64,000 nt of DNA from Haliotis rubra (lineage: Eukaryota), in assembly GCF_003918875.1 (NCBI RefSeq), contig NW_025766248.1:1240001-1304000 (forward strand), in the 5' to 3' direction. Each line of letters starts with the position of its first letter. Within the stretch, counting starts at the first letter, position 1. The position numbers were made by a program. Positions 33,001 to 36,000 of this stretch are shown here, one piece after another.

Positions 33001-36000
33001 TTGTTTACATCTGGCATCGTCTGCTTGATTTGTCATCATGGATCACACTGTTGTCCCGTCGTTTGTAATAAATACATTCCAAAACGAGTGAATGTTGAAT
33101 ATGGCAAAATATTCACAAAAATAACTCAAACGGTTTGATTTATCCTCAAGCAAAAACGAGTGAATACATGAAAACGTTCAGAAATATTGAGTTGGAATAT
33201 TTTCCATGTTCAACATCCATCCGTTCTATATATATGGTCCTGATCATGACCAGTTTCTCGAAGGCAATGCAATTGCGCATACAGAGTTAGGTCCCGTAGA
33301 TCTTAGGATCCGCTGATGATTAGTACGAATTTGTTCGTCCTGTTTATAGTTCATCGAGTGTTATACTCGTCATACATAAATGGGGACATGCCTTTAACCT
33401 ATCTCACTTATGACGTTCCTTCCAAGTTAAACTGATCATCCGTCGCTGCGATTATTAAACCTATGTTCTAAGCGGAGTTACGAATAACTCACTCACTCAC
33501 CCTCTCACTCACTCACTCTCTCACCCACCCTCTCACTCACTCATTCATTTACTCATAATAGATGGTCCACATTTGCTATGCACTATCTAACATATCTCAA
33601 TCGAAAGCTGGAATTACCCTCTCGCTGAAGAATTACTATTTATACCAACATTGGTAAGTCATAAAGCATAACTCCAGAGGACGTACAGCTCTTGGGGCAG
33701 TCCCCCTGGGGAGGTAGGGTTGACGGGTGACTCTCGGTCAGTGCTTCTCTCGTCAGTGGAAATGAATCTCGGGCATTTCACGAACACCTGTCTCAACAGA
33801 TCAGGAGTGATTTCGAAATCTGTGTTTCCCTGCATGCAATTATTCAACAACCCGAGAGACAAAACAGCCGAAGCTACCAGTTTAGGTACTTACACTGAAG
33901 AGCTGATGTTAAGATCGAAAGATCTAACTTATGTTATATTTGGGATTACACTTTCTTTGTAAAGTACAAATTCTAGTATTTTTGGGGTTGAGTCCCATCC
34001 AGGATTCGAACCCACACCATCGGAGTCAGGCACCTAATCGCCAGCACACAAGGTCAGCCGCCTAACCCGCTCAGCCACCGCGACTTCCTCCGGCTGACTT
34101 TAAGTGCTGGGGATTAGGTGCCTGACTGAGGGTGTGGGTTCGAATCCCGGATGGGACTCAACCCCAAAAGTACTAGAATTTGTACTTTACTAAGAAAGTG
34201 TAATCCCAAATATAACATATGTTACATTTGACCACTTTCTAAATGGCATTGTGTAATCATCGAAAGATATGTGTCAAAAATGAAGCGACAAAAACTTATT
34301 CCCTACAAAAAAATCTCTTGTTTGTAAGCATTGGACTCAGAACCAGACAATCCAGTGAAAAACATAATGTTCTTGTTAAACATTGTTAGACCGGAGGAAC
34401 CATTTTAAATGACATACAAAGTAGTGATCAATAACCTAATTTCCGTTCCGCAATTCGCCTACAGTCTTAAAACAACATTTCATGGTCTGTTGACTTTTGA
34501 TTACGCAATGATAACCTAGTGTCACTCACTATGATCTAACAGTGGACTCTTCTAGTTGAAGTAGTTGATGGACAAAAAGATGGACAAGAAGAATTTATTT
34601 AGTTCTGTTATTTGTCATTTTCCGATCACAATGAAATGATAATTTATTTATTTCTGTTATTTGTCATTTTCTGATCACAATGAAATGATAATTTATTTAT
34701 TTCTGTTATTTGTCATTTTCTGATCACAATGAAATGATAATTGATGTATCATATATCACATCATGTCACATCAGTATTGAGAAAGTTCACTTGTGGTGAT
34801 GTCCATTCTCTGCTGGGATGTAGGGAGAAAGCAACTGGATACTTCTGCAGGCGCGTAGCAAGCAATTTGTTTTCGTGTCAGCCCGATAGGTTGCAAAGCT
34901 TTTAATTTAGATAGTATTGAAGGCTTTTTATAATGGTAGCTACGCCCCTGTTCTGGTCCTCTACAAGGCCTCGCAAAACATACACTTTGGTCCAGTGTCT
35001 AGGGCATACATAAAATGTTCCATCCATGTACACTGTTTCAACAACAGCTGATCAAGATTAGTATTCACGTCGATACAACAGTAACATATCGATTTCGAAT
35101 ATGCATACGATGACAAGAACATTACCCATACCGTTACGTTTCGTTTTCTAAGTTGAGACACTAACTGGAAATCGGTACGTAAATGAATTCACTGCGAAAC
35201 CATTAATAACAAAAACACATTAATTAATTAACGACTGTTTCTAAGATGCTTAGCGGTTAGAACAATCGAAAAAAAAATTACATTATCAGACAATAAAGGT
35301 ATAGTTTTTTGATGACGTAACAATTGAATGACGTTATCCCGTCACTGCGTCCTCGTGCTTTAACTATAATAGCTCAGGGCAAAAGTGTGTTTTATTACAC
35401 TATACATGGTGGTAGAGCGAAGTGTATTTCTTAAATGTTACGTTATCAGATCAATAACTATTACTGCAATAGAATTACAAGAGTAATAAATAGTGGCAGT
35501 ACAAATATTAAACAATGATTATAGCAATAAAGGCGGTGATTAATATTCACGTAGAAGTGATCAAGGTTAGAAAAAGATCTAGGCTGGGAATCCAGGATGA
35601 AAATTGTTCTGTGATGTGCGATGACACAGGCATTGTCCAGCCCTCAATATGTAGAATGTACCTCATCCGGAAATTTTGTAACATGCTAGATTATTCCATC
35701 TGCACGAGAACGTTTCAGATTCCCAGTCTAAATTTAGTAAACAGCACTGCCCCCCTACTGAATCTTACCAGAAACAATTACTGCACTGTTCTACAGCAAA
35801 TAACGCAATCACATAACAATTCATTTGTATGTAAAACAAGTCTTGTTAGAGGAGACATTTCGGTATTAAGTCAACTTTGGTTCATTACATATTGTAAGTC
35901 TATTACCAGCGCTAGCCCCGTTCACTCATAAAAGCCACTCCAGCAATCTGTAAGCCATAGAATTGTCGACGAGCCTTGCTTTGACATCACGGTGAATGGG

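Follow-up and report, generated by a model that had tools for sequence, protein, structure and literature searches.

Insertions of Penelope-like elements (PLEs) are described in passages of PMC8557442 as heavily 5'-truncated, often with an adjacent inverted 5'-truncated copy, and a tail of 30-40 bp is reported there, often at one end only. According to the same passages, the Naiad and Chlamys clades of PLEs do not carry a hammerhead ribozyme, Naiads prefer (TA)n targets, and non-autonomous Chlamys derivatives exist. Excerpts of PMC3846280 describe PLE inserts with an inverted pseudo-long terminal repeat (pLTR), with target-site duplications (TSDs) of 9, 10 and 8 bp and with a 31-bp tail on one inverted pLTR. 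In these excerpts, palindromes were located at the inverted PLE junctions, head-to-head was the most frequent arrangement, and pLTRs sufficed for mobilisation in trans. The purified Anolis PLE enzyme PAc cleaved and extended both strands in vitro, unlike R2 and L1, and it started reverse transcription at two adjacent internal stem-loop sites, the genomic tail being the stretch between them (PMC11167929). Here we analysed a stretch of 64,000 nucleotides from Haliotis rubra (assembly GCF_003918875.1, contig NW_025766248.1, positions 1,240,001 to 1,304,000 of the forward strand), which is called the window below and whose first base is position 1. It contained a short repeat, Family C, at three loci. 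The best reading of Family C, held with moderate confidence, was that it is an element resembling a short interspersed nuclear element (SINE) and was mobilised in the manner of PLEs.

Family C was compared with the closest described systems. It shared the head-to-head inverted 5'-truncated copy and the one-sided tail with endonuclease-positive PLEs (Penelope/Poseidon, Neptune and Naiad/Chlamys, and Pen2a of A. vaga). Variable short TSDs, complex tandem or inverted units and the absence of poly(A) were also common to both, and the palindromes of inverted PLE junctions had a near-palindromic counterpart at two Family C junctions. However, Family C was ~200 nt long and non-coding, with a putative RNA polymerase III (Pol III)-type tRNA-like head. 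It had no hammerhead, no clean direct pLTR and no microsatellite targets. The known PLE-dependent non-autonomous elements include metazoan non-LTR retrozymes, the Chlamys-derived MRC1, A. vaga sequences captured between pLTRs and short Heliconius Penelope elements. As far as the available passages describe them, these elements, like Family C, are small passengers without coding capacity and are presumed to depend on PLE enzymes in trans. However, they derive from PLE ends (pLTR, hammerhead), the retrozymes are tandem, and a tRNA-like Pol III head is not described for them in those passages. Ordinary tRNA-derived SINEs (SINE2) and Family C had in common their size, a defined 5' end and TSDs and, in part of the Family C arms, the B-box GGTTCGAATCC and an A-box-like motif. 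Copies of ordinary SINE2 elements are monomers with a simple-repeat or A-rich tail common to a long interspersed nuclear element (LINE). In contrast, Family C was inverted at 3/3 loci (0/3 monomers), had two 3' ends and carried no such tail.

Architecture of the Family C insertions

To find copies of Family C in the window, the three loci served as blastn queries (word 7, E<1e-3) and seven single arms as nhmmer --max queries (E<=1). The family was present at three loci only, 17861-18118, 33924-34258 and 48446-48882 (loci 1, 2 and 3). Outside these loci, the nhmmer rows consisted of two marginal matches only, with E 0.75 and 0.87. The anatomy was read from an alignment of the eight arms as found. 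Judged from its sequence, Family C would be a short non-coding retroposon of ~200 nt with a tRNA-like Pol III-type head, a near-palindromic mini-hairpin and a 3' stem-loop.

The first-pass annotation had described a minus copy joined to a plus copy, tails outward, at each locus, and direct repeats of 7, 10 and 14 bp around them, and had regarded each palindrome as a single insertion. These descriptions held, with one correction. The arms were head-to-head at 3/3 loci, and locus 3 was composed of four pieces (- + - +) and not of a simple pair, its outermost arms still lying tails outward. The direct repeats were exact and were located precisely at the homology borders. If extended beyond 14 bp, the repeat of locus 3 gave 16/17 matching positions. 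A control was performed with 20000 random placements, with the spacing as observed and a slack of +-3 nt. Direct repeats of at least the observed length were obtained in 115/20000 trials for 7 bp, 20/20000 for 10 bp and 8/20000 for 14 bp. Because there was one TSD per locus and the arms had no TSDs of their own, each palindrome was considered to be one insertion. The inverted arms covered 49 nt at 80% identity in locus 1, 100 nt at 94% and 37 nt at 89% in locus 2, and 87 nt at 90% and 35 nt at 94% in locus 3.

In locus 1, the two TSD copies (GTTCCGT, 7 bp) were at 17854-17860 and 18119-18125. The complete-head arm occupied 17861-18030 on the minus strand, with its 5' end at 18030 and a B-box at 17945-17955. 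It terminated in a short 3' end, where the last 2 nt of the TSD also matched Family C. The junction filler was 1 nt (18031), and the 5'-truncated arm ran on the plus strand from the mini-hairpin start to the long 3' end (18032-18118), with a one-sided tail at 18091-18118. In locus 2, the TSD copies (ATCGAAAGAT, 10 bp) were at 33914-33923 and 34259-34268. The minus strand carried, at 33924-34088, the arm that had a complete tRNA-like head (5' end at 34088) and terminated in the short 3' end. A filler of 2 nt (34089-34090) was followed by the 5'-truncated arm on the plus strand (34091-34258), which started ~28 nt into the head and reached the long 3' end. This arm included the mini-hairpin (34170-34185), the 3' stem-loop (34193-34240) and the one-sided tail (34225-34258).

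Locus 3 was bounded by TSD copies (ACAGCATGATCATC, 14 bp) at 48432-48445 and 48883-48896. Piece a (48446-48557, minus strand) was 5'-truncated and started just 3' of the B-box region, with its long 3' end outward and its tail at 48447-48484. Piece b (48558-48621, plus strand) extended from the mini-hairpin start to the long 3' end and was without ~28 nt that corresponded exactly to the upper part of the 3' stem-loop. Such a gap is the outcome expected from a polymerase skipping across a hairpin base. Piece c (48622-48709, minus strand, 5' end at 48709) was a strongly diverged head-like piece of uncertain origin. Its Smith-Waterman score against the locus 1 head was reached by 0/1000 shuffles. 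Against the locus 2 head and piece d, the scores were reached by 94/1000 and 30/1000 shuffles, and this likeness was unconvincing. Piece c gave no nhmmer match to any other Family C arm at E<=1. The two heads were separated by a filler of 8 nt (48710-48717). Piece d (48718-48882, plus strand) combined a complete head with a short 3' end, and two to three further nt were common to the element and the TSD.

The complete heads shared one start base in 4/4 cases, at 18030, 34088, 48709 and 48718, and read GGAAG or GGATG. The same start base in all complete heads therefore pointed to one defined RNA 5' end. The partner of the complete-head arm was 5'-truncated at all three loci. Both in locus 1 and in piece b, it started at the mini-hairpin, at about position 110, and in locus 2 at about position 28. 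It had been noted earlier that the plus arm restarts at the mini-hairpin at two loci, and this was exact, at 18032 in locus 1 and at 48558 in locus 3. The mini-hairpin GTACTAGAATCTGTAC gave 8 matches at <=3 mismatches compared to 0.41 expected, and 7/8 were inside the three loci. It was present neither at the locus 2 junction nor at the junction between pieces c and d of locus 3. The central joints carried 1, 2 and 8 extra bases in loci 1, 2 and 3, respectively.

Each locus had exactly one long and one short outer end (3/3), and the short end was always on the complete-head arm. The short end was offset from the long end by 26-28 nt in locus 1, 31-34 nt in locus 2 and 35-38 nt in locus 3, the ranges reflecting the assignment of 2-3 nt common to the TSD and the element. 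The long 3' ends read ...GTGTAATC, ...GTCTATTC and ...GTATTTCAT. An A-rich or simple-repeat tail was not present at any of the three loci, and no match to the tail was found elsewhere in the window (best E 0.24). A complete head and a long 3' end were combined in 0/3 loci. Therefore, the loci looked like dead-end products and not like source copies.

The folding of the arms was predicted. In the younger copies, the 3' region gave the mini-hairpin and a larger stem-loop, located at 34193-34240 in locus 2 (-18.6 kcal/mol, z -2.87), and the z value in locus 3 was -1.16. The short ends mapped 4-11 nt 3' of the apical loop of this stem-loop. It had been proposed that read-through would give long double-stranded RNA hairpins. 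The three whole palindromes were predicted to form stable hairpins (-228.6, -205 and -79.8 kcal/mol; z-scores -25.8, -15.9 and -6.6, respectively), which was consistent with this potential. Short motifs also recurred in this region. Both 3'-end positions lay a few bases downstream of similar motifs, CATATGT (34216-34222) and CATTGT (34247-34252), which were also found at homologous places of other arms. In addition, GTGTAATC appeared twice in locus 2, once within the stem-loop at 34198-34205 and again at 34251-34258, where it formed the long end. The recurrence of motifs near the 3' ends may be due to chance or may mark two start sites.

The divergence between arms was compared within and between loci. 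The arms were identical at 46/60 positions in locus 1 and at 125/138 in locus 2. In locus 3, the identities were 69/73 for pieces a and d, 60/64 for a and b, and 29/30 for d and b. Loci 2 and 3 were 90-93% alike, and locus 1 was 77-83% like the others. This divergence was compatible with arms that started out the same when inserted and diverged afterwards, and did not amount to proof.

The element had also been called tRNA-containing, and this claim was weak. The B-box GGTTCGAATCC was exact in 3/4 arms covering it. ARAGORN made a tRNA-like call in 1/4 complete heads, even at 80% thresholds, namely a tRNA-Thr(tgt)-like gene of 95 nt in the minus arm of locus 2 (33990-34084). A pattern of A-box-like motif and B-box was present in 1/3 complete family heads (34003-34077, minus strand). 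The common 5' end was 12 nt upstream of the A-box-like motif, which we take to be the expected Pol III start. The Rfam tRNA model reported nothing on Family C, from the gathering score through E<=5 in the window and E<=10 over 33800-34400. Rfam gave 0 matches in the window at gathering and 7 at E<=5. On Family C, the only matches were to microRNA-precursor models far below their cut-offs, at E<=5 window-wide and at E<=10 over 33800-34400 (5 matches). A microRNA-precursor reading was rejected, because these sub-threshold matches merely reflect the long hairpin. The spacer between the two boxes was 54 nt in Family C, versus an A-to-B spacing of 30-35 nt in the SINE consensus printed in the relevant passages of PMC8969392. 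These results suggested, weakly, that the Family C head may be tRNA-like in a loose sense only.

Mobilisation of Family C and its alternatives

The first-pass annotation had attributed the mobilisation of Family C to PLE machinery. As for its architecture, this attribution was supported, since the loci matched published PLE insertions. As for an enzyme source, no element with reverse transcriptase (RT) and GIY-YIG domains that shared the termini was found among 77/79 ORFs (open reading frames) of at least 90 aa in the window. The one-sided tail of 26-38 nt was found at 3/3 loci, and the PLE case was therefore strengthened. On our analysis, the insertions are best read as carrying the footprint of PLE integration rather than that of LINE integration.

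The following course of events is proposed. The template would probably be an RNA of Pol III type whose 5' end is constant. A PLE protein with RT and GIY-YIG domains, supplied by an element elsewhere in the genome, would bind the Family C RNA in trans. Both cut target strands would prime cDNA, one at a distal and the other at a proximal site, and these neighbouring sites would lie within the 3' stem-loop or immediately behind it. One cDNA would run to the 5' end of the RNA, and the other would stop early, in two cases at the near-palindromic mini-hairpin. The two cDNA ends would then be joined with a few extra bases, by template jump or end joining, and staggered cuts would give TSDs of variable length. 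It is also conceivable, and we put this forward tentatively and with some doubt, that Family C is a genuine SINE, which Pol III would transcribe from the tRNA-like head, and that it parasitises a PLE instead of a LINE.

Several observations weighed against PLE-type mobilisation. The partner search was conducted with Pfam on 83 stop-free open reading frames (ORFs), and no RT or GIY-YIG domain was detected in 77/79 ORFs of at least 90 aa and six shorter ones (the two ORFs of that size left out were 5955-6236 and 9020-9304, both on the plus strand). No hammerhead ribozyme was reported by Rfam at gathering, at E<=5 in the window or at E<=10 over 33800-34400. No clean direct partial tandem (pLTR) was found among the three loci. 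The 3' stem-loop was not predicted in the old copy of locus 1 (z 0.09). The arms of locus 2 were no closer to each other than arms of different loci, which left their co-synthesis compatible with the data and undemonstrated. The three targets contained no microsatellite and none was clearly AT-rich, unlike the reported bias of PLEs, and three sites are too few to judge this. The sample as a whole consisted of three copies in a 64-kb window.

A LINE could have mobilised Family C. In that case, the inverted pairs would stem from twin priming, or from target-primed reverse transcription (TPRT) of two RNAs, on both target strands, and joining mid-way. We consider this unlikely. LINE-type TPRT ordinarily yields variable TSDs, 5' truncation, filler and a few nt common to target and element, such as the 2-3 nt at the short ends, and a LINE-type apurinic/apyrimidinic endonuclease (APE) fragment was present in the window (7485-8175, minus strand). 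In passages of PMC2912911, twin priming accounts for ~31% 5'-inverted L1 insertions (639/2068). The L1 twin priming of Ostertag and Kazazian, as cited there, resembles Family C in that the 5' part is inverted, the TSD is normal and the joints show microhomology or filler. However, twin priming joins non-overlapping parts of one RNA, whereas the Family C arms duplicated 49-137 nt, overlapped extensively and each had its beginning within the final 40 nt of the element. At 3/3 loci, the inverted arm started within ~8 aligned columns and not at internal positions spread along the element. The lack of an A-rich or simple-repeat tail was a further difficulty for a LINE, and the Family C tail matched neither the LINE fragment nor anything else in the window. 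The behaviour of ordinary SINEs was also different. They had been said not to insert as inverted dimers, and this agreed with Alu, a SINE moved by L1, for which the same passages of PMC2912911 give 5' inversion in 1/5554 copies, compared to 3/3 in Family C. It also agreed with the ordinary SINE family of the window, in which 8/8 long copies were monomeric and 0/8 had an opposite-strand partner within 100 nt of the head. The contrast in head-to-head inversion between 3/3 and 0/8 corresponded to p = 1/165 in a Fisher test done by hand.

The inversion could have been inherited, if palindromic source loci had existed before and had been retroposed whole from read-through transcripts made by RNA polymerase II. 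This would explain the single TSD per palindrome, and whole-locus transcripts would be stable hairpins. However, a long perfect hairpin is a poor template for RT, and the three junction architectures differed, with a plus arm from ~110, a plus arm from ~28 and a four-piece arrangement. Loci 2 and 3 were 90-93% identical yet unlike in architecture, and therefore each would need its own palindromic source. We regard such inheritance as improbable. An origin at the DNA level was judged to be very improbable, whether as a foldback element or miniature inverted-repeat transposable element (MITE) with terminal inverted repeats, as an inverted duplication after insertion, or as two adjacent independent insertions. 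Long inverted repeats between direct repeats were superficially MITE-like. However, a transposase gives TSDs of fixed length, and those of Family C were 7, 10 and 14 bp. MITEs and foldback elements have inverted repeats that reach both ends, whereas that of Family C reached one terminus and ended 26-38 nt short of the other. In addition, the arms had no TSDs of their own, and all complete heads started at one base, which pointed to an RNA 5' end. That independent insertions should lie side by side at 3/3 loci, 1-8 nt apart, would be very unlikely. PLE-type mobilisation was thus kept as the best reading.

Other repeats and reading frames in the window

The DNA of the window was eukaryotic-looking, with a GC content of 0.31-0.47 per 2-kb bin, and gave no sign of being human. 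Its repeats comprised unfamiliar SINEs of tRNA type, a retroelement with gag and protease, and part of a LINE. Runs of N were at 41890-42116 (227 bases) and 63695-63843 (149 bases). The second SINE family of the window, used above as the ordinary SINE control, was tRNA-derived and ~165 nt long, and gave 17 matches, 8 of them at least 120 nt. The minus strand held 7/8 long copies (20946-21095, 22377-22519, 30705-30872, 38049-38202, 40856-41015, 44750-44900 and 51827-51991), and one was on the plus strand (60711-60871). The copy at 30705-30872 had a (TCAG)n tail and a 12-bp TSD. The nine shorter matches covered mostly the 3' part, which suggests a tail in common with a LINE. The plus-strand copy at 60711-60871 and a minus-strand piece at 60915-60972 were tail-to-tail and 44 nt apart, the opposite of the Family C arrangement. 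A sub-threshold match to the Rfam tRNA model (30803-30861, minus strand, 23.3 bits, E 2.3) was located on an ordinary SINE head. Another sub-threshold Rfam match, to a fungal snoRNA (18425-18508, plus strand, 27.7 bits, E 0.26), was most likely due to chance. Diverged tandem repeats with a period of ~140 nt and 72-81% identity were observed at ~30310-31070, on either side of the SINE copy at 30705-30872. A motif of ~42 nt was found at 40610-40651 and at 13 other places on both strands with 81-91% identity, including 48932-48966 just right of locus 3, and presumably represents one end of a further, abundant family of repeats.

The retroelement domains detected by Pfam in ORFs of the window were only gag/PNMA, aspartic protease and APE endonuclease. 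A Retrotrans_gag/PNMA ORF was at 942-1559 and a retroviral-type aspartic protease ORF at 69-605, both on the minus strand. The virus-like region 69-1580 (minus strand) resembled an LTR retrotransposon reading toward, and running off, the left edge of the window. A protein-cluster search with the gag ORF gave generic retrotransposon-gag clusters only, and a homologue search gave nothing specific. The LINE-type APE endonuclease fragment was composed of Exo_endo_phos at 7822-8175 (E 2.4e-5) and Exo_endo_phos_2 at 7485-7796 (E 2.6e-9), both on the minus strand. It was part of a stretch with a higher GC content (2232-9609), in which ORFs of the minus strand were densely packed. No RT domain was found in the ORFs downstream of the fragment, and the ORF at 6403-6972 (minus strand) had no homologue. 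This stretch was probably a broken or unusual LINE.

Implications for SINEs and PLEs

SINEs are defined as LINE passengers in the relevant passages of PMC8969392, and the recognised PLE passengers are retrozymes and pLTR-derived pieces. PLE passengers as such are thus already known, and by the published descriptions available in part, the tRNA-like Pol III head would be what sets Family C apart. No described tRNA-headed PLE passenger was found by text or by four sequence strings among the literature matches listed, a search that did not cover Repbase/Dfam, subscription journals or supplements. If the PLE reading is true, a tRNA-headed SINE with the footprint of a PLE would widen the SINE concept to a third retroelement class. 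In these small insertions, nature would also have recorded three PLE-specific steps in vivo, namely priming on both strands, the start of RT at two sites of a 3' stem-loop with ~30 nt between them, and the joining of cDNAs end to end. So far, the evidence for these steps has come only from in vitro work or by inference from large copies whose assembly is poor. Insertions of a few hundred bases are easily assembled and would allow the odd products of PLE integration to be counted, whereas full-length elements are much harder to assemble. In annotation, inverted copies of this type may easily be mistaken for MITEs or foldback elements. They are also candidate sources of long hairpin RNA, and if the PLE reading is true, the palindromic products could be a steady source of it.

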